A stretch of DNA of 64,000 bases from an uncultured Acidobacteriota bacterium (GTDB lineage Bacteria; Acidobacteriota; Vicinamibacteria; Vicinamibacterales; 2-12-FULL-66-21). Below are positions 27,661 through 42,985 of the stretch, piece by piece. A program made the position numbers and the translations under genes. Within the stretch, counting starts at the first letter, position 1, and every line of letters starts with the position of its first letter. The stretch spans positions 238,021 to 302,020 of the forward strand of contig CAVVIH010000001.1 of the NCBI GenBank assembly GCA_963748295.1. Direction: 5' to 3'. Under the pieces are notes generated by a model. The model saw nothing but the letters and a program-made list of their open reading frames with translations. It was not told the origin of the DNA and made no database searches.

Positions 27661-28852
27661 GTCCCCCCTGCAGGAAAGCTAAACCCAAAAGCCGATGCAG
27701 ACACGCTATTTGACTAATGGGCCAATGATTGCAAGTTTCCAAAATCGGTAGCTGAACGTCGTCCACTCTAGTTCCAGCCGCTATCAACGCTTCCTGTCGG
27801 TGGAGTTCAAATGCATTTGCGAACAGATCCAGATGGCTCGACCGAGCGAGCGCCAGCGAGGATTCTGCCTGACGAATTGCATCGCTCCAATTATGTTGGG
27901 ATAGCATCATCCGAACGCGCGTCTGATGCGCATTCAACCGGTACCACGGTTGTATGCCTTCTCGGTCCTCGGCCTCGTCGAGAATCTTCAACGCAGATTC
28001 GTAGTCACCGGACGCCATGACAGTCCGAGCTTCGGTATCCGAAAGACTAAGCGCATAACTCGGATTGTCCAAAGGCTCACGGCGAGCCGCCTCAAGTTGC
28101 TCTCTCGCTTCCGACAGTCGACCGAGAGAGGAATATAAGAACGCTCGCGATGCAGCCGCCGCCATCTTGCCTCTGGACCAGCCACTTGCTGCAGCCTCCG
28201 CAGCACCGATTTCAGCTAAAGCCAAAGCTTCAGGGAGATTCCCCATCAACGTGAGAAGAGAAGCCTGATTCAACGCCGCACATGCAGCCAGGTGATGATT
28301 TGGTTCTGTGAGCAATAACCTCCGTGCAAGGTCGAAATGTTTATCCGAAATTGACGCCCGTCCGTTCTTTCCTTCTAACCTGCCAAATGTGATGTGAACC
28401 AAGGAGGTGGCATGGACGTCCCCACATCGCATTGCATATTCGCGGACACGTTTCGCCAGCGGCAACGATCTACTGAAGCCTTCACTGTCACAAACTCGCT
28501 CTAGAAGCTGCGCGGCCGTCTTGCACAACTGCGTATGATCACGAGCCTGTTCGGCAAACAGGATTGCCCGCCGGGTCATTTCGATCGCAATGGATGGGTG
28601 CCCAGAATGCCACTCAGCCTCTGCCATGAGTGACAGGGCCCGGCATTTGTACGCGGTCGTGAGCGTCGATGATGCCAGTATTCGCTTCGCTTCGCTGACG
28701 GCTTCCGAAGTTCTCCCGCGATATAACAGCAACTCTGCGCGCAAGATGGAGTGGTCGGGATCGCTCTTAACACGAACGGTCTCGAGAAGACCCAGAGCCT
28801 CTTCAAATCGACCTTCACGAACCGCTCGGTGGATAACGCTTTCTTCCGCCAT
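27374..28852 (-). CDS. TPR-like helical-repeat protein. The meaningful part is 27661..28852. The 3' 287 nt overlap the bEBP gene in another frame and probably reflect a 1-nt error in the C6 run at 27663..27668.
   Basis: ORF 27374..28852. Helical repeats are rich in A/L/E with TPR-like spacing (GRFEEALGLLE, YRGRTSEAVSEAKRIL, GNLPEALALAEIG, GRLSEAREQLEAA, GDYESALKILDEA). G+C is much lower than in the flanks. The sequence after ...LAFLQGG is Arg/Pro-rich frame noise inside the bEBP gene. Confidence 0.55.
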   Translation of the reverse strand: MAEESVIHRAVREGRFEEALGLLETVRVKSDPDHSILRAELLLYRGRTSEAVSEAKRILASSTLTTAYKCRALSLMAEAEWHSGHPSIAIEMTRRAILFAEQARDHTQLCKTAAQLLERVCDSEGFSRSLPLAKRVREYAMRCGDVHATSLVHITFGRLEGKNGRASISDKHFDLARRLLLTEPNHHLAACAALNQASLLTLMGNLPEALALAEIGAAEAAASGWSRGKMAAAASRAFLYSSLGRLSEAREQLEAARREPLDNPSYALSLSDTEARTVMASGDYESALKILDEAEDREGIQPWYRLNAHQTRVRMMLSQHNWSDAIRQAESSLALARSSHLDLFANAFELHRQEALIAAGTRVDDVQLPILETCNHWPISQIACLHRLLGLAFLQGGHAMRAAGHTRRASRLFESAGDFDAAAEATKTSVVFRFRSGSRLRHLPRQRRRAPRARRTPAHPRPRGVRAGAGHTLRRERRARRHRRQGAPRHRG

Positions 28853-28857
28853 AGTAG

Positions 28858-31228
28858 TTAATGAACTGATGTGCCGGGAGGCTGCGGGAGTATTGGCTGC
28901 TCGCGTCCAATCGCGCTCCGCATGAGAATCTCGAGGCTTGAACCATCAACTGGAGCACTTGCCACGCCAATAACGAGCTGGAGATGGGTAGCTAGCTCGT
29001 TAGAAAGCTCCTGTGACAACAGTGCCGAGACGCGAGTGGCAACGCCGAGAGCATCTGACAAGCCAGTCTGCGGTAGCAGCACCAAAAACTGATCTGTCTT
29101 ATGCCGGAGCAGCAGATCAACCGTCCGTAACCCTTTCTTAATGCCCTCGGCAATGCGATCGAGATCAGCACTTGAACCTTCATCGCGAAAACTGTCGGGC
29201 CGATGAGATATTTTCACAGTTACGACGATAATCGATACGTCGGACGCGGGGGTGAAGTCCGTAGTAACGAATCCCGGCTGAACCGTAGCTTGCATTCCCG
29301 ACGTTGAGAGCTTGCTCTCGATCGGCGGCTCAATCTTCAATGACGGCGCAACTTGTTTCACAATGCCTTCAACGATGCGGCGATGGTCTTCTCCGAATCC
29401 AGCCTCACTAGTCGAGTAGAGCGTTAGTACACCAATCAGATCATCTCCAGAGATCATTGGTGTATCCAGGCAGTTTTGAAGTGGTCTCAACCTCCGACCC
29501 ATATCGCCCAAATCAAGGACTGGATCCGAATTGACGATAGTTCGCTTATTAGCGGCAACCCAGCCGGTCAAACGTTCGCCACGATGAATGCGCAGCCCTA
29601 ACACGTGAGTTGAGTACCTCACCATTGGCTTGCGTGGCTACAAGATCATCGGTGGTTACTTCATACCTATAGAAAACGGATGTCGTCGCTGGAACCAGCC
29701 GCCTCAGGTGCGTAAACACTTCCTCAATGACCTGCGCACCGTCTGACCGACCAGACAAGGCTATGGCAAGGTCATACAAGACCATCATCTCTTCTGTGCT
29801 CGCGGCGATATCATTCAGGCGCGTTGTTCGCCCTGTCTGATCGGATGAAGTGCCGCCGCGAGCAATGCTTGAGAAGGCAAGTGTAGTGGTCGCAGCCGCA
29901 CGAAGTTCCTGACGAGCAACTGAGTGAACTTCGATGAAGGCGTCAACGATGATGGGATCGTACATAGAGCCGCGTCTATCGAGCAGGATTTTTATGGCGT
30001 CAGCGTCAGGTAGGCGCGGGCGATAAGGACGGTCTGATGTAAGAGCGTCAAAACAATCCACGACAGAAAGGATACGGGCGCCGATCGGAATCTCCGCGCC
30101 TCTCAGACCATCAGGATAGCCAGAACCATCCCAGTTCTCGTGGTGATGTCGAACGATCGGGACGACCGGGTATGGGAAATCGATCGCGGACAGAATATCT
30201 GCTCCGACGCTGGCGTGAAGCTTCATCTTCTCAAATTCCGCAGCGGTCAACTTACCTGGCTTGTTCAAGATATATTCAGGGACTGCAAGTTTTCCCATGT
30301 CGTGAAGAAGTGAGGCCGCTTCTATTGCGCTGATTTGAATCTGCTCTTTTACTCCAATATGTTTGGCAAGTTGGACCGCGTATTGCTGCACTCGCCTAAT
30401 GTGCCCGTGGGTGATCTGATCCTTGGCGTCGATCGCCATGGCCAGCGTCTCGATCGTCGACAGGTAGAGCTTATTGAGTTCGCTCAAGTGTCGATTCGCA
30501 TCGTCGACGCGGCCCAGGGCTGCCTTGAAAGTCAAATAAAAAATGAGGAGAACCGGAAGCAAAACACCAGTGACGTAGAGGAAGGCATCATAAGTGTTCG
30601 CCTGTAGCAAGTAGGGCAGGAGAAGCGCAGCGACCGAAGCCCCGCTGAAGTAGTTGAGAGACAGCCATAAGAAATTCTGTTTCCAAATCGTAAATGCTGC
30701 TTGTCCCTTCTGGAACGACACAGCAAACGCTACCAGCCAGCTGTTCAGCAGAAAATACAGCGCGGCCAATCCAAAGAGCGGAAGAACCACTGATAATACT
30801 GGTTGAGGCGTAACAGAGAGGGGATCTATCCGCGCAACTACGTAGAAGCCAGTGGACGCCGTCCAAATCGCTACAGCTGCGGCTGCGACGTTAAAGAAAA
30901 CTCTCGAAATTGGAATCGAGCTACGTCCCAGCCAGAAAGAAATGACTAAGGTGTCAAGTACTACAATCATGGTTGCGGCTGCGGGACCAAATAGAAGGAC
31001 AGCCGCAAATACAAACGTGTCTGAGACGGATAGTCGAGCGGAGACTCCAGGAATACGAACAGTGAAGGACCCACTCAATAGAGTGAGCACTGCTAGCATC
31101 GCCCATTGCGGCGGAATCGGTCTTTGGGCCAGCGACCAAATTGAATGCAGTACCGCAAAGACGCCGGCTAGAACGACGCTTGCTACATAAATACGTCCGG
31201 CATCTCCGAGTTTCTCTCGGGCGCGCAT
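28858..31228 (-). CDS. multi-TM sensor + HD-GYP phosphodiesterase + GAF + degenerate GGDEF domain (frame break near 29620)
   Basis: ORF 29549..31228 has about 7 TM segments, then HGHIRRVQQYA...LLHDMGKLAVPEYILNKPGKL...HHHENWDGSGYPDGL...VDCFDALTSDRPYR, then the start of a GAF domain (MMVLYDLAIAL...VFYRYEV). ORF 28858..29625 continues the GAF (GERLTGWVAANKRTIVNSDPVLDLGD). A GGDEF-like fold follows, with KTDQF where GGDEF is expected (DLLLRHKTDQFLVLLPQT). Confidence 0.75.
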
Positions 31229-31320
31229 TCGAACTCCCTGTAACCCTAGTCTCCCCAGATGATAAGTCGGCTCATCTGTTTGCTCCTTCTAGTATAGGGA
31301 CCATTGGTTGAAGTGCGGCT

Positions 31321-32993
31321 TCAATCAGCACGAACAACAGCGTCAGCCCAGACGATAGTGTCGGCCCAGACAATAGTGTCAGCCCACACGATGGTGTCGG
31401 CCCAGACGATTGTGTCCGACCACACCAGCGTGTCGGCCCAGACGATGGTGTCGGCCCAGACGATGGTGTCGGCCCAGACGATGGTGTCAGCCCAGACGAT
31501 GGTGTCAGCCCAGACGATAGTGTCGGCCCAGACGATAGTGTCGGCCCAGACGATGGTCTTAGCTCTCGATTTCTGAGAAATCGCGTATCGAGGGAGGAGT
31601 CCTTGTGGAGTGGATGCGTCATTGAATGCCAGACCCGACCGAAGGACTATCTCTCCGCCGATACTGATCGGCCCGCGATAAGTTTCTTCGCCAGCCCCAC
31701 CGCCGCCAGCGCATTCAGGCTCCCCGCCCCCGCCTCGATCAGCCCGGCCCCCTTCACCCGCGAGCTCGTGACCTGCAGGATCAGCTTGATCTCCGCCGGC
31801 GACAGGTTCGGCCGCGCCTCGAGGACCAAAGCGGCGGCGCCCGAGACGACGGCGGTCGACATGCTCGTGCCGCTCATCTCCATGTAGGCGCTGGTGCCGT
31901 CGCTCGTCACCACCCGCTCGGGATAATCCCGCGCCAGCGTGCTCGAGGCCATCACCGCCGACACGATGCGATTGCCCGGCGCCGCGAGCTCCGGCTTGAG
32001 CACGCCGTCGATCACGGACGGACCGCGCGAGCTGTAGGTCGCCATGATGTCGTCGGACCGCTCGGCGGTGCCGCGCGTGTTGAGCGCCCCCACCGTCAGC
32101 GCGAACGGCGAGTTGCCCGGCGACACGATTCCGCCCACCACCGGCTTCCCGTCGTCGGTCTTGCCGAAGTTGCCGGCCGCCGCGACGACGAGGATGCCCT
32201 CTTCGGTCGCCCGCTGCACGGCCTGGCACAGCGGATCGTCCTTGTACGACTCCAGCACCGGCTTGCCGAGCGAGAGGTTGATGATCCGGATGTTGTATTC
32301 GCGCTGGTGTGCGACGGCCCAGTCGATCGCTTCGATCACGTCGCTGGTCGTGCCCGACCCGTCGTCGCTGATCGCGCGGAGGCTGACGATGTGCGCGCCC
32401 GGCGCCACGCCGCGTTCACCGGCGGCGCCGCCCGAGATGATGCCCGCGACGTGCGTGCCGTGGCCGTAGCCGTCCGGATCGCCCGAGGACGAGTCCGTGA
32501 AATCAACCGACGCCACCACGCGGCCCGCGAGGTCGCGGTGATTGCCGACGCCGGAGTCGATGATCGCGACGCCGATGCCGCGGCCGGAATACGCGGAGAT
32601 GCCCTGGAGCGCCCCGCTCCACACCTGGTCGGCGCCAATCGCGCTGGTCGTGACGGCCATCATCCGCCGCACCGGCGCATCGCTCGAAACGGAGTCGACC
32701 TCGGGGTCCTGCGTCAGCGCATCCAGCTGACCGCCGCTGACTTCGAGAACCGCGCCGTTCCGGAGCGTCTTGAGGACGCGGACGCCGTACCGGGTCGCGA
32801 GCGTGTCGATCTGCTCGCGGCTGCCCGAGACGATGACCCGAGTGCTCGACTGGTCCCCAGCCGCCAGTCGGTCGACAAGATCCTTCGACAGCCGCGCCCG
32901 CCGAGGGCCGGCCTGTGCCGCCGCAACCACCAGTAGCGCGATCGCCAGGGTGGCGAGGCTGCGGAGAAACGTGCGTCGAACGAGAGTCATCAT
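31321..32993 (-). CDS. secreted S8 subtilisin-like protease (signal peptide, I9-like propeptide) with a C-terminal (TIVWAD)n array (frame break at the C-run 31672..31674)
   Basis: ORF 31647..32993: MMTLVRRTFLRSLATLAIALLVVAAAQA; VAIIDSGV (Asp), HGTHVAGII (His), GTSMSTAVVSGAAAL (Ser). After ...GLAKKLIAG, a 1-nt shift joins the frame of ORF 31321..32229: PISIGGEIVLRSGLAFNDASTPQGLLPRYAISQKSRAK(TIVWAD)n. Confidence 0.8.
31324..31557 (-). repeat. 13 head-to-tail 18-bp units encoding TIVWAD (one TLVWSD, last unit AVVRAD)
   Basis: Directly visible: GTCGGCCCAGACGATGGT-type units with mostly third-position differences. Open in several frames (ORFs 31272..31622, 31304..31576, 31321..32229). Confidence 0.95.
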
Positions 32994-33051
32994 GTGACCG
33001 CCGCCTAAGTTATTCAGTCAGCAGGGAAATCAGGTGGACGCGGGTAATGAA

Positions 33052-33067
33052 GGCACGCGACGTGCCA
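33052..33067 (-). promoter_or_regulatory. candidate sigma-54 (-24/-12) promoter upstream of subtilase 1
   Basis: The minus strand reads TGGCACGTCGCGTGCC, against the consensus TGGCACG-N4-TTGCW. GG and GC are correctly spaced, and 10 of 12 specified positions match. It lies about 60 nt upstream of the ATG at 32993. The element is palindromic (GGCACG cga CGTGCC). Confidence 0.4.
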
Positions 33068-33312
33068 CTCTCATCAATTGATGCCGATCGCCGATCGGCG
33101 GCGGGCGCTGATATGTCAGGAACGAACTCTTTGGTGCAGTTTAGTTGCGAGGAAGAAAACCTGTCGGCTACCATGTGCACATCCCGGAATCACGTGCGCA
33201 CGGTGATCAGCCAACAAGTTGGCCGCCCCGGCCAAAATCGGCATCTGGGTAGCGCTTACCCGCCGAAATAGCTAGGAAAACCCGCATTTGGCACCGGGCA
33301 AGTAATTGGCCG

Positions 33313-35068
33313 GTGAGTTCATTAGTGGCCCGAACATCGAAGACGCTCGGTCTCATCGTGATCCTCGGGATCGCCGCCGGCGCCGCGTGGCGCTTCAGGA
33401 CGCACGCGCCGGACGCGGTGCCGGACCGCGAAAACCTGCGCATTGTTCGCGGCGGCGAGCTGGTCGCCTCGCTTCGATCCGATCCCGCGACCTACAACCG
33501 CTACATCCGGCCGGGGGCCAGCGCGGCGACCGAGGTGGTCACGCAGCTCGTTCACGCGCGGCTGATCCGGGTCAACAGGTCGACGGATGAAATCGAGCCG
33601 TCGCTCGCCGAATCGTGGACCCGATCGGACGATGGATTGACTTACACCCTCCGGCTGCGCCGGGATGCGGCCTTCTCGGACGGGATGCCGTTCACGTCGG
33701 CTGATGTCCTTTTCTCGTTCCGCGCAGCGTACGACGAGGGGGTGAAGAGTCCGATTCGGACGTCACTGGAGGTCGCCGGCAAGCCGTTGCAGGTTACCGC
33801 GCCGGATTCGAACACGGTGGTGATCGTGTTTCCGCAGGCGTTTGCGCCCGGCCTCCGGCTGCTGGACAACCTGCCGATTCTCCCAAAGCACAAGCTCGAA
33901 GCGGCCCTCAACGGCGGCACGTTCGCCGAGCAGTGGGCCCCATCGAAGCCTCTTGGCGACATCGCCGGCCTGGGTCCGTTCACGCTCGTCGAGCACGTGT
34001 CGGGCCAGCGGCTGGTGTTCGCCCGGAACCCGCGATACTTCCGCAAGGACGACCGGGGTGAATCGCTGCCGTATCTCGATCGCCTGACGCTGGCAATCGT
34101 TCCGGACCAGAACACCGAAGCGCTTCGCCTCGAGGCGGGGGAGACCGACCTCATGGTGAATGGCGAGATCCGGCCGCAGGATTACGCGGCGTTCAAGCGC
34201 GCCGCGGACGAAGGCCGCGTCCGGCTCCTCGATGTCGGGGTCGGCCTCGACCCTGATTTCCTGTCATTCAACCTGCGGGCCGCGAAGCAGGCCGATCCGC
34301 GCTGGGGGTGGCTCGGACGCCGCGAGTTCCGTCAGGCGATCGCGTGGGGGGTCGATCGGCAGGCGATCGCCGACACGGTGTACCTCGGGGCGGCGGTTCC
34401 CATCTCGACGCCGGTCTCGCCCGGCAACCGGACCTGGTACTCGAAGGACCTGCCGGCGTTCAATCACGATCCGGCGCGGGCGCGGCAGCTGCTCGCGTCG
34501 CTCGGCCTGCGCGATGCGAACGGGGACGGTACTCTCGAGGACAAGTCCGGCGCGCCCGTGCGCTTCTCGATCCTGACCCAGGGCGGTCACAACCGCGAGC
34601 GAGTCGTCTCCGTTCTGCAGTCGCAGCTGGGCGCCCTCGGAATCGCGATCGACATCGTCGCGCTCGATCAGGGAGGCCTCTTCCAGCGGTGGAGCTCCGG
34701 CGACTACGACGCGATGTACTTCGGTCTCCAGGCCAGTTCCACCGACCCCTGGCTCAATCCCGAGGTACTGGCTCAGCTCCGGAGGATTTCACTTGTGGAA
34801 TCCGGCGCAACCAGCGCCGGCGACCGATTGGGAGGCCCGCATCGATACGCTGATGCGATCGACGGCCGGCGCACCGGATCTGGCCGCGCGCCAATCGGCA
34901 TTTGCCGACGTTCAGCGCATCCTGATCGAAGAGCTGCCCGCCATCTACTTCGTGACCCCGCGGCTGACCCTTGCGACGTCGCACAAGGTGGTGAACCCGA
35001 CACCGGCGCCGCAGAGTCCGCAACTGCTCTGGCGTGCCGAGACCCTCGCCTCGGCCGGCGCGCGCTGA
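33313..35068 (+). CDS. ABC transporter substrate-binding protein, family 5 (peptide/nickel, DppA/OppA-like) (frame break near 34760)
   Basis: ORF 33313..35160: IEPSLAESWTRSDDGLTYTLRLRRDAAFSDGMPFTSADVLFSF, GLGPFTLVEHVSGQRLVFARNPRYF. C-terminal part in ORF 34793..35068: WNPAQPAPATDWEARIDTLM...ELPAIYFVTP. Confidence 0.8.
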
Positions 35069-35069
35069 C

Positions 35070-36017
35070 GTGCCTCCAGGTTTCCTGCGCTTCGTCGTCC
35101 GCCGCACCATTTTTGCCGCGCTTCTCGTCGTGGTGGTGTCGTCGGCCGCCCTGGCGTTGATCTCGGCGGCCCCCGGCGGGCACCTCGCCGGCTTCGACCT
35201 GACCCCCGAGATCGTCGCCGCGGAGCGGGCGCGCCTCGGACTGGATCGGCCGTTCATCCAGCAGTACGCAGACTGGCTCGGGAAAGCGATCCGGCTCGAC
35301 TTCGGCGAATCCCTCAGATATCGACGGCCGGTTCAGGATCTCGTCAGGGAGCGCGCCTGGAACACCGTGGTGCTTGGCAGCGCCGCACTCCTGCTCGCGA
35401 CGGTGCTCGGAATTCCGGCGGGGATTTTCACCGGCAGCCGCACGAGCGCGCTCGCATCGCTGATGCGAGGCGTGTCGATGGTGCTGCTGTCGGTGCCGCC
35501 GCTGGTGACGTCTTTCTTGCTGCTGTACATCGCGGCGCGGACGCGCTGGCTGCCGGTCGGCGGGTTCGGCGGCGGCGCGCCGTCGAACGGCGCCCAGATG
35601 CTTCTGTATCTCGTCTTGCCGTGCCTCGCGCTGGCGATGCCGATGGCGGCGACGCTCGAACGCCTTCAATCACAGACGATGCGCGACGCGATGATGGAAC
35701 CGAGCATCGAGGCGGCACGCGCGCGCGGATGTTCGATCGCCCGGGTGATCTGGCGGCACGCGCTGCGCCTTTCGCTCAAGCCGGTCGTCGCCCTCTACGG
35801 GATCTTCCTCGGCAGCGTGCTGAGCGGATCGTTTGCGGTTGAAATCATCATGTCGTGGCCGGGGCTTGGCGCGCTGACGTATGAGGCGCTCGTCGCGAGA
35901 GATCTCTTTCTCGTCGCCGGCTGTGCCGCGGCCGGCGCCGCCTTCCTCGCCGCCGGCGTACTCGTATCCGACATTGCGCTCGCCGTCATCGATCCACGCG
36001 TCACGGAGGCGCATTGA
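35070..36017 (+). CDS. ABC transporter permease (DppB/OppB-like)
   Basis: The GTG at 35070 lies 2 nt after the SBP stop. FLRFVVRRTIFAALLVV..., LGLDRPFIQQYADWLGKAIRLDFGESL, six TM segments. Confidence 0.8.
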   Translation: MPPGFLRFVVRRTIFAALLVVVVSSAALALISAAPGGHLAGFDLTPEIVAAERARLGLDRPFIQQYADWLGKAIRLDFGESLRYRRPVQDLVRERAWNTVVLGSAALLLATVLGIPAGIFTGSRTSALASLMRGVSMVLLSVPPLVTSFLLLYIAARTRWLPVGGFGGGAPSNGAQMLLYLVLPCLALAMPMAATLERLQSQTMRDAMMEPSIEAARARGCSIARVIWRHALRLSLKPVVALYGIFLGSVLSGSFAVEIIMSWPGLGALTYEALVARDLFLVAGCAAAGAAFLAAGVLVSDIALAVIDPRVTEAH

Positions 36018-37039
36018 CACGCCCTGCGCCGCGCGCGATCGGCATCGCGATCATCGCCCTGCTTGCGGCCGCCGCCGCCGGAGCGAACGTCATTCGCGTC
36101 AATGCTCCCGATCGGCAGTTCTCCGATTTCGTATTCGCGCCGCCCATGCCGATCCGAATCTTCGATCGCGATGGCACGCTGCGGATGCCGTTCGTCTATC
36201 CCTTGCGTCTTCAGAGCCGGCTCGAACGCACCTTCGCCGAAGACCGTGATCATCCGATGCCGCTGCGGTTTTTTTCGGGGGGCAAGCTGATTACCACGGC
36301 TGACAGCGGGTCGCCATGGTTCCCGCTCGGAACCGACGCGCTCGGCCGGGACGTTTTCGCGCGGCTCGCCACCGGCAGCCGCCTCTCGCTCGGCGTGGCG
36401 TTCGCGGCCGCCGCGGGCGCGTTGCTGATCGGCGCGCTGGCCGGCGCGATCGCCGGACTCCTGGGCGGGCGCATCGACGACGTGCTGATGCGTGTGTCGG
36501 AATTCATCCTCGCGCTGCCGGCGCTCTACGTGGTCCTGGCACTGCGGGCCGCGGCGCCGCTCATCCTCAGCACGGCGCAGATCTTCTGGATCATGGTCAC
36601 CGTCTTCGCGCTCGTCGGATGGCCCTTCGCGGCGCGCGGCGTCCGCGCCATCGTTGCCGCCGAACGGACACGGGAGTACGCAGAAGCTGCGCGATCGATC
36701 GGCGCTTCCCGTACGCGTTTGTTGCTACGTCACCTCCTGCCTGCCACGCGTGGCTTTCTCGTCGTGCAGGCAACCCTGCTCCTCCCGGCGTTCATCCTGG
36801 CTGAAGCGACTCTGTCCTTTGCAGGTCTTGGATTTGGCGAGCCGACACCGAGCTGGGGAGTGATGCTTCAGGAGGCGGGCAGGGGGCGCACACTCGCCGA
36901 TGCTCCCTGGCTCCTGGCCCCCGCCGGCGCGATTGCCGCCCTCGTTTTTGCCGTCAACCTCTTCACAGGAGCGACCGTTTCTGCACACCCGCGCCTGACG
37001 TCATCAGATAAATCACGCGTTATCAATGATTTATCGTGA
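36014..37039 (+). CDS. ABC transporter permease (DppC/OppC-like)
   Basis: Overlaps the upstream stop codon. PLGTDALGRDVFARLATGSRLSLGVAF, EYAEAARSIGASRTRLLLRHLLP (EAA-like loop). Confidence 0.8.
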   Translation: MTRPAPRAIGIAIIALLAAAAAGANVIRVNAPDRQFSDFVFAPPMPIRIFDRDGTLRMPFVYPLRLQSRLERTFAEDRDHPMPLRFFSGGKLITTADSGSPWFPLGTDALGRDVFARLATGSRLSLGVAFAAAAGALLIGALAGAIAGLLGGRIDDVLMRVSEFILALPALYVVLALRAAAPLILSTAQIFWIMVTVFALVGWPFAARGVRAIVAAERTREYAEAARSIGASRTRLLLRHLLPATRGFLVVQATLLLPAFILAEATLSFAGLGFGEPTPSWGVMLQEAGRGRTLADAPWLLAPAGAIAALVFAVNLFTGATVSAHPRLTSSDKSRVINDLS

Positions 37040-37266
37040 CTGTCTCAAGAGTGTTCCAGACCTGACATCGGTGTGACGGAATTGAACATAGGGGTAACCC
37101 ACTAATTGCTTGCTATTTAGCCTTCCGTCAAAGACAAATTACAGCCTTGTATGTTCCAGGATGGTGCACGATGATCGTCCTGAGGCCCGGTCCAACAGTT
37201 CCGTATTTCTCAGCAAGTCTCAGTTCGGCAAGTAGATAGCTCACCTTTGCGCAAGCCCGGCCGTCG

Positions 37267-37282
37267 TGGCCGACGCCTTGCT
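37267..37282 (+). promoter_or_regulatory. candidate sigma-54 (-24/-12) promoter upstream of the GNAT-subtilase-GNAT unit
   Basis: TGGCCGACGCCTTGCT against the consensus TGGCACG-N4-TTGCW. GG and GC are correctly spaced and TTGCT is a perfect -12 element. It lies 70 nt upstream of the ATG at 37352, in a 310-bp lower-GC non-coding spacer. Confidence 0.45.
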
Positions 37283-37351
37283 CTGCCGGTGGCTGTCAAC
37301 AAGGTGTGTCTTCGCCGCCCGCGGGCGCACACACCCAGGAGCAAAAAGACC

Positions 37352-38005
37352 ATGGCGACCTCGATGTCAGACCCCGTCGGACAGCAGCTCGCGACGAACG
37401 TGATTCCGGCGGCAGTCCAGGAAAGTGACTGGCGCAAGCGGCTCCCGGTGATCGCGGGGCGCGGCGTCACCCTGCGCGAGTTGCGGGCCGGCGACGCGCC
37501 GGCGTTGCTCGAGTTGCTCGCGACCAGCGAGGTCGCCCAGTTCATTTCGCCGCCACCGACGACGGTCGACGGGTTCGAGCGCTTCATTTCATGGGCGCAG
37601 CAGGAACAGCGGGAAGGCCGCTACGTGTGCTTCGCGGTCGTGCCCGAGGGCATGTCGACGGCGGTCGGGATCTTTCAGGTTCGGAAGCTCGAACCGCAGC
37701 TCGGCACCGCCGAGTGGGGTTTCGCGCTCGGCCGCGCCTACTGGGGCTCGGGAATCTTCGCGGCTTCGGCGCGGCTCGTCGTCGACTTCGCGTTCGAGAC
37801 CGTCGGCGTGCATCGTCTCGAAGCGCGTGCGGCGGTCGCGAACGGGCGCGGCAACGGCGCGCTCGCGAAAATCGGCGCGGTGAAGGAAGGTCTGCTGCGC
37901 AGGAGCTTCCTGCGGCACGGGCAGTATCACGACCAGACGCTCTGGTCGATCGTGCGGGAAGACTGGCGGCGGTCGAAAGCAGTGTGGGGGGACGTGGTGC
38001 ACTGA
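37352..38005 (+). CDS. GNAT family N-acetyltransferase (RimJ/RimL-like)
   Basis: Internal Met of ORF 37247..38005. VTLRELRAGDAPALLELL, EWGFALGRAYWGSGIF, GVHRLEARAAVANGRGNGALAKIGAVKEGLLRRSF. No signal peptide. Confidence 0.8.
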   Translation: MATSMSDPVGQQLATNVIPAAVQESDWRKRLPVIAGRGVTLRELRAGDAPALLELLATSEVAQFISPPPTTVDGFERFISWAQQEQREGRYVCFAVVPEGMSTAVGIFQVRKLEPQLGTAEWGFALGRAYWGSGIFAASARLVVDFAFETVGVHRLEARAAVANGRGNGALAKIGAVKEGLLRRSFLRHGQYHDQTLWSIVREDWRRSKAVWGDVVH

Positions 38006-38111
38006 TTCCGAAAAGCTCTTTGACCCACCGCCCGCGAAACGGGCGGGTATCCAGAGCGGCGACAACGTGACCACTTCCGGAAGCGACGGAAGGTATAGAA
38101 GGGACGGAGTG

Positions 38112-40191
38112 ATGCAGTTCCGATGGGTTAACCGAACGTGGGCGGTCAGGATCCTGGCCCTCGCGTGCTTGACGGGGGTGATTGCCCCGCCGGCAGCGCA
38201 GGCCGAGAGCTACCGCAACCGCCAGCTCGAAAAGCAGCTCGAGCAGATCGAGAGGCAGGCGAAGGAGCAGGAGGACGCGCAGTACGGAAAGCGCGGACGG
38301 CTCCACGACCTGAAGTCGCTGCGCGAGAAGGGCCGGATTCGCGTCCTCGTGATGCTGAAGCCTGGCTCGGATGGCTCTCAGCTCGACGAAGCAGCTTGGC
38401 GGCCGCCTCGCCCGGGAGTTCCGCTTCTCGAACTTCGCGGCGCTCGATCTGCCGATGGGCCAGCTGAAGAAGCTCGCGCGTTACAGCGACGTTCTCTCCG
38501 TCCACCTGGATCGCGACATCGCCGGCGACATGACCCGCGAGATGAGCGCGATTGGCGCACGCTACGTCCAGGAGCAATACGGCTTCGACGGGAGGGGCGT
38601 GGGCGTCGCGGTGATCGACTCGGGGATCACCGGATGGCACGACGACCTGACCTATCAGGGCACTTCGGCCAAGGTGCGCGTGGTGAATGGCCAGCGCGTG
38701 GCGGCGTTCGTCGACTTCGTCGAAGGCACGACGACGCCGCATGACGACTTCGGCCACGGCACGCACGTCGCCGGCATCATTGCCGGCAACGGCTACGACT
38801 CGGACGGCGCGCGCGCCGGCGTCGCCCCCGCAGCGCACATCGTCAGCCTCCGCGTGCTCGACGATCAGGGCTTCGGCGTGATCAGCGACGTCATGGCGGC
38901 GCTCGAGTGGGCGGTAGCGAACAAGGCGGCGCACAACATCCGCGTCATCAACATGTCGGTGGGCGCGGGCGTGCACGAATCCTACAACACCGACCCGCTG
39001 ACGCTTGCGGCGAAGCACGCGGTGGAGTCGGGCATCGTCGTCGTCGCGGCCGCGGGCAACCTCGGCAAGACGAGCGACGGCAAGATCCTCTACGGCGGCA
39101 TCTGCGCGCCCGGCAACGCACCCTGGGTGCTGACGGTCGGCGCGTCGGACACGAAGGGCACGGCGACGCGATTCGACGACTCGGTCGCGCCGTACAGTTC
39201 GCGTGGGCCCTCGCTGATTGATCACGCCGCCAAGCCCGACGTCGTCGCGCCTGGCACCAGCATCGTTTCGCTTGCGGATCCGAACAGCCTGCTTTACACC
39301 GCACGGGCCGGATCCCTCGTTCGCGGCACGCACCCGATGGCGACCAAGCCTTACCTGTCGCTGACCGGCACGAGCATGGCGGCGCCGATGGTGTCGGGCA
39401 CGGTCGCGCTGATGCTGCAGGCGAACCCGACGCTCACGCCGAACCTCGTCAAGGCGGTGCTGCAGTTCACGGCGTTCGACAGCGGTGACGCAGATCCGCT
39501 GACCGAAGGCGCCGGCTTCCTGAACGCACGCGGTGCGGTCGACCTGGTGCGCTACTTCAAGACTGCGACGTACGGGTCGCGGTACCCGGTCTCGAGCAGC
39601 TGGAGCCAGCAGATTCTGTGGGGCAACTACCAGCTGAGCGGCGGCGTGCTGTCGCCGACCGCGAGCGCCTGGGGCCTCGACATCGTCTGGGGCACCGCAC
39701 TTGACCGCGAGGGCCGGAACATCGTCTGGGGCACGCTCTGCGACGACGACTGCGAAAACATCGTGTGGGGCACGGACATCGTGTGGGGCACGGACATCGT
39801 GTGGGGCACGAACATCGTCTGGGGCACCTACGGTGACGGCGAGAACATCGTCTGGGGCACCCTCGATGATCTGGGCAGCAGCCGCAACATCGTCTGGGGC
39901 ACGCTTTGCGAGGGCCGCAACTGCCGCGACATCGTCTGGGGCACCGACATCGTCTGGGGCACGGACATCGTCTGGGGCACCGACATCGTGTGGGGCACGG
40001 CGCTCGACCTCGAAGACGTGGTCTGGGGGACGATGGCCGATTTCGAGAACATCGTCTGGGGCACGAGCGGCGCCGACGAGGACGGACCGATGTATGACGA
40101 CCCGGAGGGGACCATAGGGATCTTCCCGCTCCTGCCGGATGAGGAAATCTCCATCAGCCTGACGCTGATGCCAGCCGGGGGAGGTCTCTAA
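38112..40191 (+). CDS. secreted S8 subtilisin-like protease with a C-terminal xIVWGT repeat array (frame break near 38370)
   Basis: MQFRWVNRTWAVRILALACLTGVIAPPAAQA (frame of ORF 38067..38744), then ORF 38371..40191: VAVIDSGI (Asp), HGTHVAGIIAG (His), GTSMAAPMVSGTVALM (Ser), followed by 15 xIVWGT units. Confidence 0.8.
39679..40064 (+). repeat. 15 (D/N)(I/V)VWGT hexapeptide units, some contiguous and some separated by 5-8 aa spacers
   Basis: DIVWGT ALDREGR NIVWGT LCDDDCE NIVWGT DIVWGT DIVWGT NIVWGT YGDGE NIVWGT LDDLGSSR NIVWGT LCEGRNCR DIVWGT DIVWGT DIVWGT DIVWGT ALDLE DVVWGT MADFE NIVWGT. Confidence 0.9.
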
Positions 40192-40859
40192 TGGAGAAGA
40201 TGCCTTTCCACGAGTCAGAACAAATCGGCGACGTGCACGCCGTGATGATGGCTGCGTCGACGGAGCAGGTGACGACGAGCGACTGGCGTCAGAAGCTGCC
40301 GGTGCTCACCGGGTCGATGGTCACGCTGCGCGAGCTGCGGCTGTCGGATGCGCCGTCGCTGCTGTCGATGCTCTCGACCGAGGAAGTGGCGCGATTCATC
40401 TCGCCGCCGCCGACGACGATCGAGGGGTTCGAGCGATTCATCGCCTGGACGCATCGTGAGCGGGCGGTCGGCGCGTATGTCTGCTTCGCGGTGGTTCCGC
40501 ACGGCATGGACACTGCCGTCGGGATCTTCCAGGTGCGTCAGCTCGATCCTGGATTCAGCACCGCCGAGTGGGGCTTCGCGATTGGATCCCCGTTCTGGGG
40601 CACGGGCGTGTTCGTCGACGGCGCGAAAATGGTGATCGACTTCACCTTCGAGGTCGTCGGGTCGCACCGGCTCGAAGCGCGTGCGGCGGTGGCCAACGGC
40701 CGCGGCAACGGCGCGCTGCGCAAGATGGGCGCGAGCCAGGAAGGGGTGCTGCGCAAGTCGTTCCTGAGGGATGGCGAGTATCTCGATCAGACCCTCTGGA
40801 CGATCGTCGAAGACGACTGGCGGCGGAACCGGACGCCCGGCACGCCGCGCGTCCACTGA
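40191..40859 (+). CDS. GNAT family N-acetyltransferase, paralog of 37352..38005
   Basis: The ATG shares one nucleotide with the subtilase TAA (TAATG), and GGGGGAGG lies 8 nt upstream. VTLRELRLSDAPSLLSML, EWGFAIGSPFWGTGVF, GSHRLEARAAVANGRGNGALRKMGASQEGVLRKSF. Colinear with the first GNAT. Confidence 0.8.
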   Translation: MEKMPFHESEQIGDVHAVMMAASTEQVTTSDWRQKLPVLTGSMVTLRELRLSDAPSLLSMLSTEEVARFISPPPTTIEGFERFIAWTHRERAVGAYVCFAVVPHGMDTAVGIFQVRQLDPGFSTAEWGFAIGSPFWGTGVFVDGAKMVIDFTFEVVGSHRLEARAAVANGRGNGALRKMGASQEGVLRKSFLRDGEYLDQTLWTIVEDDWRRNRTPGTPRVH

Positions 40860-40886
40860 CGCCTGGTCCATCGTTTGGGAGGAGAG

Positions 40887-40921
40887 GGGCCGAAGCAGTG
40901 AAAGCTGCTTCGGCCCTTTTT
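40887..40921 (+). terminator. rho-independent terminator
   Basis: 12-bp GC-rich stem GGGCCGAAGCAG / CTGCTTCGGCCC, 6-nt loop, then TTTTT. It lies 28 nt after the GNAT stop codon. Confidence 0.75.
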
Positions 40922-40944
40922 GCGTTCGTGTTAGTCTGCCTCCG

Positions 40945-41843
40945 ATGAACCTCGAGGCCGTTTTCCCGCCGATTCCCACTCCGTTCGCGGGCGACGACAT
41001 CGACGCGGCGGCGATCAGAGCCAACGTCGGCAGGCTGATGGAAACAGGCTCTCGGTGGAATCGTGGCGCTCGGCTCGAACGGCGAAGCGCCGTTGCTGGA
41101 CGAAACCGAATCGGATCGCGTGATTGCCGCGGCGCGCGAGGCGACGCCTTCGGAGCGCACGCTGATTGCCGGCACGGGACGCGAGTCCACGCAAGCCACC
41201 ATCGCCGCTTCGAAGCGGGCGGCGGCGCTCGGCGCTGACGCGGTGCTGGTTCGGACGCCGTCGTACTACAAGGGCGCGCATGACGTCCGATGCGTTCGTC
41301 GCCCATTACACGGCGGTGGCGGATCACTCGCCGGTGCCCGTGTTGATCTACAACTATCCCGCCGTGACCGGCGTCAACATCGCCGCGGCCGCGGTCGGCC
41401 GGCTGTCGCGGCATGCGAACATCGTCGGCATCAAGGAGACCGGCAGCGACACCGCCCAGGTTGCCGATTTCGTGGCGGCGTCGGCCGGGAGCTTCACGGT
41501 GATCGCCGGGTCCGCGCCGACGTTCTACTCGTCGCTGTGCGTCGGGGCGCGCGGCGCCATTCTGGCGGTCGCGTGCGTGCTGCCGGATATCTGTGTCGCG
41601 CTGCTGGAGCATTACCGCGCCGGCCGTCACGGCGAGGCACGCGAGCTGCAGCGGCGGCTGACGCCTCTCGCGAAGCTCGTGACGACTGTCCACGGCGTTC
41701 CCGGGCTCAAGGCTGCGCTCGATCTGGCTGGATACACTGGCGGGCTGCCGAGACCCCCGCTCGCGCCGTGTTCGCGGGAAGGCGTCGAGGAAATCCGCCG
41801 CGAGCTCGCAGCGGTGCAGTCCTTCGCGGCAGCTGGGCGATGA
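40945..41843 (+). CDS. DapA/N-acetylneuraminate-lyase family aldolase (two frame breaks, near 41050 and 41285)
   Basis: MNLEAVFPPIPTPFAGDDIDAAAIRANVGRLMETG, then IVALGSNGEAPLLDETESDRVIAAAREA...LIAGTGRESTQATIAASKRAAALGADAVLVRTPSYY, then FVAHYTAVADHSPVPVLIYNYPAVTGVNI...IVGIKETGSD. Confidence 0.7.
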
Positions 41844-42985
41844 CGATTCCCGAACGGCTCCTGCTCGGCCCCGGCCCAAGCCCCGTTTCCGCGCGCGTGT
41901 CGAACGCGCTGACGCAGCCGGTGCTCAGCCATCTCGATCCCGCGATGATGGCAATCCTGGACGACGTCCGTGCGCGTCTCGGGCGCGTGTTCGGCGCGTC
42001 GGACAAGGCGTTCAGCCTGGCCGTCTCGGGCACCGGCACCGCGGGCATGGAAGCGGCGGTCGCCAATCTCGTGTCGCCGGGAACGCACGCGGCGGTAATC
42101 GTCAACGGCTACTTCGGCGATCGGCTCGCACGCATGATCGGGTCGTACGGCGCCGACGTCATGCGCGTCGAGGGCGAGTGGGGCCGCGCCTGCGATCCGG
42201 CGGCGCTCGAGCGGACGCTGCGCGCGGCCGCGATCGATCTGGTGGGCGTCGTCCACGCGGAAACGTCGACCGGCGTGCTGAATCCGCTGCAGGATGTGTT
42301 GACGGTTGCTGGAAAGGTTGGCGCGCTGACCATCGTCGACGCGGTCACCTCGCTGGGCGCCATCCCGCTCCGCGCGCAGGAGTGGGGGGTGGATGCGTGC
42401 TATAGCTGCACACAAAAAGGACTCGGCGCGCCTTCCGGTCTCGCGCCTCTGACTTTCTCTCCACGCGCGAACGAGCGCCGCGTGGCATCGCGGAGCTTCT
42501 ATTTCGATCTGGCGCTGCTCGAAGACTATTGGCTGCGGCGCAAGTACCACCACACGATCTCGGCGCCGTTGATTTATGCGCTTCGCGAGGCGCTCGCCGT
42601 GGTCGAAGAGGAAGGTCTCGACGCGCGCTGGGATCGGCACCGCCGAAACCATCTGGCGCTGGTCGCGGGTCTCGAGGCGCTCGGTCTCGATCTCTTGCCG
42701 GCGCCGGGCGAACGGCTCTGGACGCTCAACGCGATCCGGGTGCCCGACGGCGTCGACGAAGCGGACGTTCGCCGGCGTCTGCTCGACAGCCACGGCATTG
42801 AAATAGGCGCGGGACTCGGGCCGCTGGCCGGACGCATCTGGCGCGTCGGCCTGATGGGCGCGGGATCCACCATCGAGAACGTCGAGCGATTTCTAACCGC
42901 GCTCGAAGCTGTGCTTACCGAAGCCGGGCTTCGACTCCCGCAACGCGGTGCCGCAAGCTCTGCGGCCCGGCACGCTATCAGTTGA
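41840..42985 (+). CDS. class V aminotransferase (alanine-glyoxylate / serine-pyruvate type)
   Basis: ATGA overlap with the upstream gene. LLLGPGPSPVSARV, AVSGTGTAGMEAAVANL, VVHAETSTGVLNPL, DAVTSLGAIPLRAQEWGVDACYSCTQKGLGAPSGLAP. Confidence 0.8.
   Translation: MTIPERLLLGPGPSPVSARVSNALTQPVLSHLDPAMMAILDDVRARLGRVFGASDKAFSLAVSGTGTAGMEAAVANLVSPGTHAAVIVNGYFGDRLARMIGSYGADVMRVEGEWGRACDPAALERTLRAAAIDLVGVVHAETSTGVLNPLQDVLTVAGKVGALTIVDAVTSLGAIPLRAQEWGVDACYSCTQKGLGAPSGLAPLTFSPRANERRVASRSFYFDLALLEDYWLRRKYHHTISAPLIYALREALAVVEEEGLDARWDRHRRNHLALVAGLEALGLDLLPAPGERLWTLNAIRVPDGVDEADVRRRLLDSHGIEIGAGLGPLAGRIWRVGLMGAGSTIENVERFLTALEAVLTEAGLRLPQRGAASSAARHAIS

Follow-up and report, generated by a model that had tools for sequence, protein, structure and literature searches.

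The repeat array at the C-terminus of subtilase 2 is, from comparison with its homologues, a lineage-specific, non-catalytic repeat module of Sec-exported S8 peptidases of Acidobacteriota. Its elementary unit is a hexapeptide of the order aliphatic, aliphatic, Trp, small, polar, polar, which reads NIVWGT or DIVWGT in subtilase 2 and TIVWAD in subtilase 1, both encoded in the window, the whole stretch of 64,000 nucleotides analyzed here.

The array of subtilase 2 and its gene

The features of subtilase 2 in the window are the following.

38112..38204, plus strand: Sec-type signal peptide MQFRWVNRTWAVRILALACLTGVIAPPAAQA, in the window in another frame than the catalytic ORF
38371..40191, plus strand: subtilase 2 ORF as in the window, 606 aa, with propeptide end, S8 domain, pre-repeat region, array, and tail
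38384..38384, no strand: single extra base splitting subtilase 2 into two ORFs, from DNA and RNA contigs
38590..39489, plus strand: Peptidase_S8 catalytic domain, Pfam PF00082, aa 74-373
39490..39678, plus strand: conserved pre-repeat region including the degenerate first unit QILWGN; family consensus WSxQIxWGNxRLxGGVIxPxANAW
39679..40065, plus strand: array of 14 exact [DN][IV]VWGT units, aa 437-565, in the same ORF as the catalytic triad
39713..40028, plus strand: super-repeat of 171 nt (57 aa), 1.9 copies with 80% matches according to TRF
39736..39756, plus strand: spacer LCDDDCE (C-x3-C), counterpart of the LCGxDCE loop of the family before unit 3
39904..39927, plus strand: spacer LCEGRNCR (C-x4-C), counterpart of the mid-array DCGGADC loop of the family
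40066..40188, plus strand: acidic tail SGADEDGPMYDDPEG...PLLPDEE..., ending in GGGL, from the ORF translation

That array and triad share one translated ORF, as originally predicted, was borne out by metatranscriptome contigs from soil and rhizosphere (92-99% identity), which extended over the gene with its array end and tail and across the junction to the next gene. The original prediction had counted 15 units preceded by a degenerate one and had placed the array at 39679-40064. The start and the degenerate unit (aa 414-419, 39610..39627) were correct, but there were 14 exact units plus the degenerate one, and the array extended one base further. Both Cys-pair spacers and the acidic tail SGADEDGPMYDDPEGTIGIFPLLPDEE were found in the translation as expected. 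The spacers between the 14 units were, in order, 7, 7, 0, 0, 0, 5, 8, 8, 0, 0, 0, 5, and 5 aa long, which placed four units back to back in each of two runs. TRF indicated an 18-nt period in the array, and the 171-nt super-repeat represents an internally duplicated half-array starting with a Cys loop. Seven DNA variants encoded the 14 units, so that the units varied synonymously. When the subtilase 2 protein was shuffled 20,000 times, a mean of 0.00035 units and a maximum of one unit resulted, which excluded chance as the origin of the array.

The PF00082 score of 182.2 bits, compared to a cut-off of 21.8, assigned subtilase 2 to the S8 peptidases, and the catalytic triad was present in the subtilase order of VIDSG (D83, 38617..38619), HGTHV (H129, 38755..38757), and GTSMA (S335, 39373..39375). 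A Foldseek search with the model of a full-length homologue returned only subtilases, with Tk-SP and the subtilisins as nearest matches (E 1e-21 to 1e-30).

Base 38384 was most likely an assembly indel. It was not present in a 283-nt DNA contig (run X1) that was otherwise identical to the window, and one base was absent from RNA contigs, at 38384 in X45 and at 38386 in X42. Removal of this base yielded an uninterrupted protein of 692 aa, and the homologues with signal peptides had about 700 aa. Only after this removal did the pre-pro layout of signal peptide and N-terminal propeptide appear. The signal peptide of the corrected protein ended in ...PAAQA/ES as in the homologues, with peptide and cleavage site judged by eye. 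The presence of a signal peptide means that an oxidizing compartment is available for disulfides, and the Cys-pair loops would be compatible with disulfide closure in the exported protein.

Subtilase 1 and the conserved locus

The second array and the genes around both subtilases are located as follows.

31324..31557, minus strand: subtilase 1 array of 12 T[IL]VW[AS]D units (31342..31557) and the degenerate AVVRAD, with the stop codon at 31321..31323
31647..32993, minus strand: subtilase 1 catalytic ORF with signal peptide and S8 domain, about 42% identical to subtilase 2
31682..31683, minus strand: missing-base site, AAA versus AAAA on the minus strand, which parts subtilase 1 from its array
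33313..37039, plus strand: peptide ABC importer of the Dpp/Opp type (SBP_bac_5 and two permeases, from Pfam), between the subtilases
37247..38005, plus strand: upstream paralogous GNAT, from ORF, Pfam, and related loci
40180..40193, plus strand: GGAGG Shine-Dalgarno site (40180..40184) and TAATG stop/start overlap (40189..40193), inside the last subtilase 2 codons
40191..40859, plus strand: translationally coupled GNAT acetyltransferase (Acetyltransf_3, RimJ/RimL-like, Pfam 73.9 bits), without a signal peptide

The same repeat core had been noted in subtilase 1, and this array was real, but it was in frame with its catalytic ORF only after a correction of 1 nt. The catalytic ORF stopped at TAG in the window as given, out of frame with the TIVWAD array, and one base added to the AAA run at 31682/31683 joined the two into a corrected protein of 557 aa. 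A DNA contig of run X19 (96% identical) contained one base more at this position, and the subtilase 1 orthologues were single ORFs stopping exactly after the last unit. Both frameshifts in the window were 1-nt indels. The nearby DHDPS gene in the window also apparently contains a 1-nt indel.

Eight DNA variants of the subtilase 1 array encoded two peptides in the TIVWAD frame and eight in each of the other frames. As judged from such variants, the peptide of both arrays is under purifying selection at the protein level, in agreement with the original view of the repeats as a selected feature rather than noise.

The order of subtilase 1, peptide ABC importer, GNAT, subtilase 2, and GNAT was conserved. 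For the importer, synteny was kept in >50 related loci, and a GNAT gene was located directly 3' of the subtilase in 79 of 80 related loci. A single RNA contig (40029..40312) bridged subtilase 2 and the GNAT gene. The GGAGG motif was retained in relatives, even where it was read in another frame, and the C-terminus GG[LF] is conserved because the Shine-Dalgarno site of the coupled GNAT gene overlaps it. We also considered whether GG[LF] directs sorting or, resembling a product, docks as a tail into the active site, and rejected both in favor of this ribosome-binding site.

The repeat family and searches for a known fold

A homologue search led to a large Acidobacteriota family of S8 peptidases, which is unnamed and was defined here by the landmarks WSxxIxWGN...ANAW, at least 10 IVWGT cores, two Cys-pair loops, the acidic tail, and a downstream GNAT gene. 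Subtilase 2 of the window displayed all of them, and its C-terminal 213 aa matched the family with E-values down to 4.7e-55 and 41-60% identity. The searches gave 393 hits (90% clustering) and 525 representatives (50% identity), and the GTDB species genomes contributed 407 loci. All hits were from Acidobacteriota, mainly Vicinamibacterales but also Bryobacterales, and a Peptidase_S8 domain was present in 32 of the 33 long family members. Nearly all genomes found were those of uncultured bacteria (MAGs), with soil and rhizosphere as sources. A literature search for the repeat motif and for Vicinamibacterales subtilases retrieved nothing relevant, and no public assembly was on record with the exact sequence of the window ORF.

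Up to 12 NIVWGT units followed each other back to back in S8 ORFs of Vicinamibacterales, Bryobacteraceae, and Terriglobia. In the spaced arrays of the family, the cores occurred at a modal distance of 11 residues with acidic and variable spacers, giving the consensus a-x-D-G-E-N-I-V-W-G-T. Taken together, these two arrangements indicate that the loops are optional and the core is not. The residues N, I, V, W, G, and T of the core were conserved at 87-100% in hundreds of homologues. Two Cys pairs were found in 83 of 120 full-length homologues and one pair in another 34, at fixed unit positions (117 of 120 with a pair), and Cys was 96% conserved in the 14-residue units of the family. The first and last units were degenerate (QIIWGN and EDVTWGS, respectively), the loops were position-specific, and the number of units was between 5 and 24 with a mode of 12. 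The arrays contained 0.1% Pro, 18% D+E, and 0.55% K+R, and were rich in V, I, W, T, N, and G. They were followed by a tail of the type ...SGEDxxLFDDPxAxPVNYDxTPLEDLF, a Pro-rich stretch, and GG[LF].

Within this family, the array of the window was atypical in its zero-length spacers, common to L001/L157 and L043/L144, and in its Asn-to-Asp changes. Asp replaced Asn in 8 of the 14 units, whereas Asn was 89-99% conserved family-wide, which could make the copy of the window a derived form. Some database homologues were frame-shifted translations of arrays of this type, and such arrays give rise to frame-shifted gene calls both in long-read assemblies and in public protein databases.

Searches of Pfam and NCBIfam with aa 374-606 at E-values up to 1 gave no family of known function, and no carbohydrate-binding, anchoring, or PPC family matched. 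The same was true for the P-domain and other known subtilase C-terminal domains at the profile level, and for known solenoid profiles and solved structures compared with the array. A PDB sequence search with the C-terminus of the window protein and with a pure NIVWGT array, at E-values up to 10, retrieved nothing credible. No NCBIfam hit indicated a C-terminal sorting signal of the PEP-CTERM, GlyGly-CTERM, LPXTG, T9SS CTD, or autotransporter barrel type, and subtilase 2 ended in ...MPAGGGL without a hydrophobic helix or basic tail. With 6-11 residues, the units are too short to cross a membrane, which led us to reject an outer-membrane barrel or an autotransporter.

The only curated model that responded to the repeats, and weakly, was PF20853 (WKTW_rpt), a profile of 21 positions. 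Subtilase 2 scored 11.4 bits (E 0.29) compared to a cut-off of 24.7; no hit was obtained with the subtilase 1 array, with TIVWAD arrays in general, or with canonical spaced arrays. Synthetic arrays passed the cut-off with 34.8 bits for (NIVWGT)12 and 26.7 bits for (DIVWGT)12. The response depended on the order of the residues, with no score for scrambled, NAAWGT, NIVAGT, or NIVWAA arrays. A G-to-K change in the NIVWGT array raised the score to 93.4 bits, which means that the profile itself seems to be 6-periodic. Five of 11 natural spacer-less arrays passed the cut-off (relatives with longer spacer-less runs, 25-34 bits), the passing scores being sums over many weak stretches, and subtilase 2 of the window by its score lies at the fringe of this model. 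A described function of, or literature on, PF20853 was not found. In searches for natural members of the WKT type, an NIVWKT query gave no matches, and a period-6 DNA scan for WKT returned only a (WKT)n low-complexity ORF.

AlphaFold2 modeled the region in front of the repeats but not the repeats. The C-terminal 213 aa of the window protein, with an alignment of 117 sequences, reached a mean pLDDT of 53.8 with the repeats below 50, and the repeats were again below 50 when a canonical homologue was modeled over its full length with 121 sequences. In the homologue P0278, the pre-repeat region and first units beside the catalytic domain were predicted as beta strands with a pLDDT of 68-82. According to these models, the repeats could be disordered, or could fold on binding only.

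Possible functions of the array

To explain these data, we tentatively propose, as a reading with a reasonable though limited chance of being correct, that the array is an extracytoplasmic beta-solenoid-like rod, which binds or anchors the protease beside the co-encoded peptide importer. After export, the units would stack into an elongated rod resembling a beta-solenoid or beta-roll, each unit contributing one short I-V-W strand and the residues G, T, and N (or D) forming the turns. At the corners of the rod, the acidic and disulfide loops would stick out, and the degenerate units would cap both ends. The rod would display ladders of Trp and Ile and would remain on the mature protease as a binding or anchoring module. 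The enzyme could thus be held at the cell envelope, at matrix polymers, or at an insoluble substrate, so that the released peptides may reach the Dpp/Opp-type importer. The degenerate end units, position-specific loops, fixed Cys pairs, modal number of 12 units, and very low Pro content argue for a folded repeat domain instead of a string of peptides. On the other hand, C-terminal extensions of secreted subtilases are frequently cleaved off, which counts against a retained rod.

One alternative we regard as unlikely but not negligible: the array may be a C-terminal pro-region or secretion helper, which aids folding or passage of the outer membrane and is subsequently removed. Precedents are the C-terminal pro-sequence of aqualysin I and, in other Gram-negative proteases, the PPC domains. 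Such a function would agree with the position of the array behind the S8 domain of a Sec-exported protein from a diderm phylum, with the conserved acidic tail that follows, and with the end of the protein at the array, clearest in the subtilase 1 orthologues, and the variable number of units means that the length of the array is seemingly irrelevant to catalysis. However, there was no similarity to PPC, P-domain, or known pro-regions, and conservation at the residue level together with fixed Cys loops exceeds that of the usual disposable helper.

Somewhat less probable still is an intrinsically disordered, acidic, and Trp-rich tail that becomes ordered only on binding cations or a mineral or polymer surface, or that simply maintains the enzyme in a soluble or sorbed state in soil. 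The low AlphaFold2 confidence in both runs, the excess of acidic over basic residues, and the origin from soil and rhizosphere are consistent with such a tail, but spacer-less NIVWGT arrays contain no acidic residues, indicating that charge is not a core property. Moreover, the near absence of Pro and the composition of the arrays suit beta structure, and the positional conservation is strict.

We give little credit to a multi-copy peptide precursor, cut by the linked protease or a partner into NIVWGT peptides that would serve as signals, antimicrobials, or re-imported cues, and just as little to the associated assumption that the adjoining Opp/Dpp importer and the cytoplasmic GNAT would process the released peptides. 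A near-invariant core between variable, acidic spacers, a varying copy number, and the absence of a fold in the AlphaFold2 models could be expected of a precursor, as could the co-encoding of a protease, a peptide importer, and a RimJ/RimL-type N-acetyltransferase that is translationally coupled. Against this, the spacer-less arrays have no distinct flanking sites for cleavage or recognition, the terminal units are degenerate in the manner of solenoid caps, and the Cys-pair loops occupy conserved positions. The Bryobacteraceae versions occur without GNAT, and no RiPP-type maturation enzyme was seen in a Pfam scan of the neighboring genes.

A left-handed beta-helix (LbH), as formed by the hexapeptide repeats of bacterial transferases, is improbable to the same degree. 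Back-to-back runs and the subtilase 1 array repeat at exactly six residues, LbH proteins accept loops at their corners, and the TIVWAD arrays gave weak Hexapep matches of 11.6-14 bits (E 0.04-0.24). All these scores were below the gathering score of 27, and subtilase 2 gave no hit. Neither did (NIVWGT)12, whereas a scrambled GVNTWI array reached 28.8 bits with Hexapep_2; since the scrambled and not the native array was matched, the order of the residues is not the [LIV]-[GAED]-X2-[STAV]-X of LbH. In addition, AlphaFold2, which models LbH readily, built none here, although its pLDDT below 50 for the repeats left no usable model of a triangular 18-residue coil or any other fold.

Low-complexity noise, an assembly artifact, or a dead gene, which the indels in both subtilases and apparently in the DHDPS gene and the frame-shifted database translations might suggest, is for practical purposes refuted, because independent short-read DNA and RNA contigs restored both frames, the orthologues are intact, the homologues number in the hundreds, and the peptide is under purifying selection.

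The array can be compared with known systems. Like the array, the LbH repeats (PF00132/PF14602) have a strict six-residue period, keep aliphatic and small residues in register, and tolerate inserted loops, but known examples occur in cytoplasmic acyl- and acetyltransferases and not in the tails of exported proteases, and here every unit contains Trp. The RTX beta-roll of serralysins (HemolysinCabind) likewise consists of short, Gly/Asp/Asn-rich tandem repeats that end a secreted protease, and the acidic turns of the spaced arrays could bind Ca2+; Ca2+ binding as a core property was rejected in view of the spacer-less arrays without acidic residues. Different from RTX (PF00353), the period is 6 or 11 and not 9, neither GGxGxD nor a Pfam hit was found, and the protein possesses an N-terminal Sec signal instead of a type I secretion signal. 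PPC, the kexin P-domain, the beta-jelly roll of Tk-SP, and the C-terminal pro-sequence of aqualysin are likewise non-catalytic modules behind an exported S8 domain, but they share no sequence or profile similarity with the array, which is a short tandem repeat and not globular. Choline-binding repeats (CW_binding_1) and GW modules, which hold enzymes on cell-surface polymers, are C-terminal short tandem repeats with invariant aromatic residues and Gly on secreted enzymes; these repeats of about 20 or 80 residues, however, come from Gram-positive bacteria, and no Pfam hit to them was obtained here. The beta-roll of the ice-binding protein of Lolium perenne is built from the repeat xxNxVxG, each coil having 14-15 residues and each strand 7-8. 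Within N-x-V-x-G, Asn and Val point inward and Gly forms the turns. As a tentative lead, the N-I-V-W-G of the array fits this pattern, with no match at the level of PDB sequences (E up to 10).

It is conceivable, although we consider it doubtful, that the NIVWGT and TIVWAD arrays represent an undescribed, minimal beta-solenoid in which each hexapeptide provides one strand of three residues, Trp forms a ladder, and the corners freely accept acidic or disulfide-closed loops. Such a solenoid would differ from LbH and RTX, would be out of reach of present structure predictors, and would keep the secreted proteases of abundant soil Acidobacteriota bound near the cell. Vicinamibacterales and Bryobacterales rank among the commonest soil bacteria, and their secreted subtilases probably add to protein turnover in soil. 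A solved structure of the module could reveal a new repeat fold, could explain how extracellular proteases and the peptides released by them are retained near the cell, and would improve the annotation of thousands of metagenomic proteins.

The repeat array of subtilase 2

The repeats of subtilase 2 are part of one ORF with Peptidase_S8 and the catalytic triad D83, H129 and S335 (motifs VIDSG, HGTHV and GTSMA), which upholds the original prediction that the array is translated.

38371..40191, plus strand: subtilase 2 ORF, 606 aa, Peptidase_S8 at aa 74-373 (Pfam, 182 bits)
C-terminal part, N- to C-terminal: QILWGN, 17 aa, DIVWGT, ALDREGR, NIVWGT, LCDDDCE, NIVWGT DIVWGT DIVWGT NIVWGT, YGDGE, NIVWGT, LDDLGSSR, NIVWGT
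C-terminal part, continued: LCEGRNCR, DIVWGT four times, ALDLE, DVVWGT, MADFE, NIVWGT, then SGADEDGPMYDDPEGTIGIFPLLPDEEISISLTLMPAGGGL

A total of 14 canonical units (nt 39679..40065) was counted instead of the 15 initially announced, with one degenerate unit upstream as had been stated; in the ORF translation, the spacers and the two cysteine pairs were exactly as described. With these small corrections, the observation of the array is confirmed. At the DNA level the 14 units comprise seven variants, and the mean number of units expected by chance was 0.00035 when the protein was shuffled 20,000 times. Tandem Repeats Finder indicated an 18-nt period and a 171-nt super-repeat, the latter being an internal duplication of a half-array with a Cys loop at its start. 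Long open frames in other frames or on the other strand across both arrays (39701..40117 [+], 39828..40154 [-], 31272..31622 [-] and 31304..31576 [+], reading TSSGA..., PQTMS... or PSSGPT...) are alternative readings of the repeats only. Mis-framed repeat stretches (EHRLGH, RTSSGA) are present within the public homologous proteins P0104, P0107 and P0111.

Reading frames of both subtilases

Both subtilase genes have a broken frame in the window, apparently through sequence error. For subtilase 2, the N-terminal portion read from an ATG at 38112, with the signal peptide and the first part of the propeptide, is in a frame different from that of the catalytic ORF. Base 38384 is missing from a short-read DNA contig that is otherwise identical over 283 nt, and two metatranscriptome contigs contain one base fewer at the same spot. 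Without this base, subtilase 2 has 692 aa and a typical Sec signal, and its size and layout match those of the homologues. Subtilase 1, the other S8 protease, is divided between two frames.

31647..32993, minus strand: subtilase 1 catalytic ORF, ending with a TAG stop
31342..31557, minus strand: array of 12 TIVWAD units, in a frame different from the catalytic ORF

The AAA run at 31682/31683 is one base longer in a 96%-identical DNA contig, and addition of this base yields ...AAVGLAKKTYRGPISIGGEIVLRSGLAFND...SRAK(TIVWAD)12 AVVRAD*. Orthologues from eleven genomes each form one uninterrupted ORF, in which a linker joins S8 to 6-16 TIVWAD units and the stop directly follows the last unit. Because the supporting contig belongs to a relative, the frameshift may be real in this strain. 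The core is common to both subtilases, as proposed, but the subtilase 1 array is in frame only when one base is added.

A third indel, compared to short-read DNA, was located at 38011 just past the upstream acetyltransferase (GNAT) gene, and the DHDPS gene at 40771..41879 appears to be distributed across several frames and joined to an aminotransferase ORF. This suggests that the window is probably a long-read assembly that retained indels, which makes its ORF-based annotation unreliable. The solute-binding-protein (SBP) ORF (33313..35160) and the first permease ORF (35034..36017) overlap as listed by about 127 nt, which may result from the choice of the start codon or another indel.

Family, repeat unit and gene neighbourhood

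Searches outside the window showed that the array belongs to a family. The C-terminal 213 aa retrieved 393 clusters, nearly all of them soil-metagenome fragments with S8 and from Acidobacteriota where named; an exhaustive HMMER search gave 525 representatives at 50% identity, with Peptidase_S8 in 32 of the 33 long ones. GTDB species genomes contained 407 loci, all in MAGs and mostly from Vicinamibacterales. The MAG titles of six loci (L041, L055, L071, L125, L038, L179) name Bifidobacterium, Bifidobacteriaceae, Chitinophagaceae or Alphaproteobacteria despite an Acidobacteriota gene pair, probably due to mis-binning or mislabelling. One long repeat-bearing representative matched Pfam Ice_binding (E 1e-30) and another HemolysinCabind (E 2e-8); these may be genuine fusions or adjacent genes joined through frameshifts.

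Full-length relatives of about 700 aa consist of a signal peptide, a propeptide, S8, a conserved pre-repeat segment (WSxQIxWGNxRLxGGVIxPxANAW), 10-14 units and a tail (...EDVTWGSSGEDxxLFDDPxAxPVNYDxTPLEDLF, followed by Pro-rich and Ser/Thr/Gly-rich parts and GG[LF]). Their cores have a modal period of 11 and the consensus a-x-D-G/L-E-N-I-V-W-G-T, and the composition of the arrays is 18% D+E, 0.55% K+R, 0.1% Pro and 9% Trp. Two loops with Cys pairs have a constant location: LCGxDCE precedes the third unit, and DCGGADC is situated in the middle of the array. Both occur in 83 of 120 proteins and a single one in 34. LCDDDCE and LCEGRNCR of the window are these family loops and, in line with the original reading, probably form disulfide loops.

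Back-to-back units were absent from the best 240 homologues. A DNA scan identified 89 loci with WGT-[DN]-IVWGT in Vicinamibacterales, Bryobacteraceae/Bryobacterales and Terriglobia, almost always in an S8 ORF where the whole ORF was visible. Unspaced runs comprise up to 12 consecutive NIVWGT units, and spaced and unspaced units can co-occur in one array; the nearest relatives of the window (L001/L157, L043/L144) also have unspaced runs, but contain Asn in place of the window's Asp. TIVWAD arrays sometimes contain TIVWGE units. The invariant element is thus aliphatic, aliphatic, Trp, small, polar, polar, and the acidic and disulfide loops are optional insertions.

The array corresponds to no known domain: Pfam and NCBIfam contained no family of known function over aa 374-606, PDB sequence searches were empty, and RTX, PPC, P-domain and choline-binding repeats did not match. 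The sole responding model was PF20853 ("WKTW repeat"), with 11.4 bits for the window protein at a cut-off of 24.7, so that the window copy is formally outside this family, and, of 11 natural arrays with extended runs lacking spacers, 5 scored 25-34 bits. Probing with synthetic arrays demonstrated that the response needs the residue order (no match for scrambled, NAAWGT, NIVAGT or NIVWAA arrays); replacement of G by K raised the score to 93 bits, indicating that the profile itself appears to have period 6. Natural WKT arrays were not found by synthetic query or DNA scan, nor was literature on PF20853.

29549..40859: conserved gene-order block in the window
37247..38005 and 40191..40859, plus strand: paralogous RimJ/RimL-like GNATs flanking subtilase 2, no signal peptide
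40180..40193, plus strand: SD site and TAATG overlap, subtilase 2/GNAT (sequence, 80 related loci)

A GNAT gene (Acetyltransf_3, RimJ/RimL-like) directly follows the subtilase gene in 79 of 80 related loci of the Vicinamibacterales type (L001-L080), usually with a stop/start overlap (TAATG) and GGAGG in the last subtilase codons, and a single RNA contig covers the array end, the tail and the GNAT start. GGAGG is retained even where the frame reads ...GR* or ...GRQ*, so that the ribosome-binding site of the coupled gene, rather than a sorting signal, accounts best for the conserved GG[LF] C-terminus. Tandem subtilase-GNAT pairs are common, each copy with its own GNAT, and GNAT is absent in the Bryobacteraceae versions.

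The order HD-GYP (-), TIVWAD subtilase (-), SBP_bac_5, permease, permease, GNAT, NIVWGT subtilase, GNAT is conserved in many Vicinamibacterales MAGs, with no ABC ATPase gene seen beside the permeases in this block. The GC content is 0.54-0.56 at 28001..32000 (TPR, GAF-GGDEF and HD-GYP genes plus the 3' end of subtilase 1) compared to about 0.67 elsewhere; this stretch is not an obvious recent insertion because relatives carry the HD-GYP gene in synteny.

Fold and possible role of the array

AlphaFold2 with family alignments was run twice, and the repeats were of low confidence in both runs. The window C-terminus reached a mean pLDDT of 53.8 (repeats 26-45). In the canonical homologue P0278, the S8 domain was well modelled, the pre-repeat region and first units formed beta strands (pLDDT 68-82), and confidence fell below 50 for residues 555-681 and was about 60 in the conserved tail. 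Several sequence features nevertheless make a folded repeat domain more likely than a string of peptides: degenerate units cap the array at each end, its loops and Cys pairs are position-specific, one unit number is preferred, Pro is virtually absent, and the composition is rich in V/I/W/T/N/G, as is typical of beta-solenoids. Each hexapeptide might be a short strand plus a turn of a stacked coil, since a loop can be missing from any corner while the six-residue core stays intact.

In the leading, though tentative, reading, the array would be exported with the protease as a disulfide-braced, beta-solenoid-like rod, would stay on the enzyme and could serve to bind or anchor it close to the cell or on the substrate. 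A C-terminal pro-region or secretion helper, cleaved instead of retained, is unlikely. Somewhat less probable is a disordered acidic tail that becomes ordered on cations or surfaces. A self-processed multi-copy peptide precursor tied to the importer and GNAT is improbable. The same low probability applies to a true left-handed beta-helix (LbH), which would be one special case of the fold: the sequence lacks the LbH hexapeptide signature, TIVWAD scored 11.6-14 bits at a cut-off of 27 and NIVWGT not at all, and a scrambled control array does match Hexapep_2. Noise or a dead gene can practically be dismissed, as the array was correctly predicted to be selected: eight distinct 18-nt DNA units of subtilase 1 converge on two peptides in the TIVWAD frame but give eight in each other frame, one of which has stop codons, and N, I, V, W, G and T of the family cores are 87-100% conserved.

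Non-catalytic C-terminal repeat extensions are a known general theme of secreted subtilases, and the feature is a lineage-specific form thereof, with an uncharacterised type of repeat that at present cannot be modelled. The Dpp/Opp-type peptide importer lies between two exported proteases, an arrangement that points to protein scavenging.
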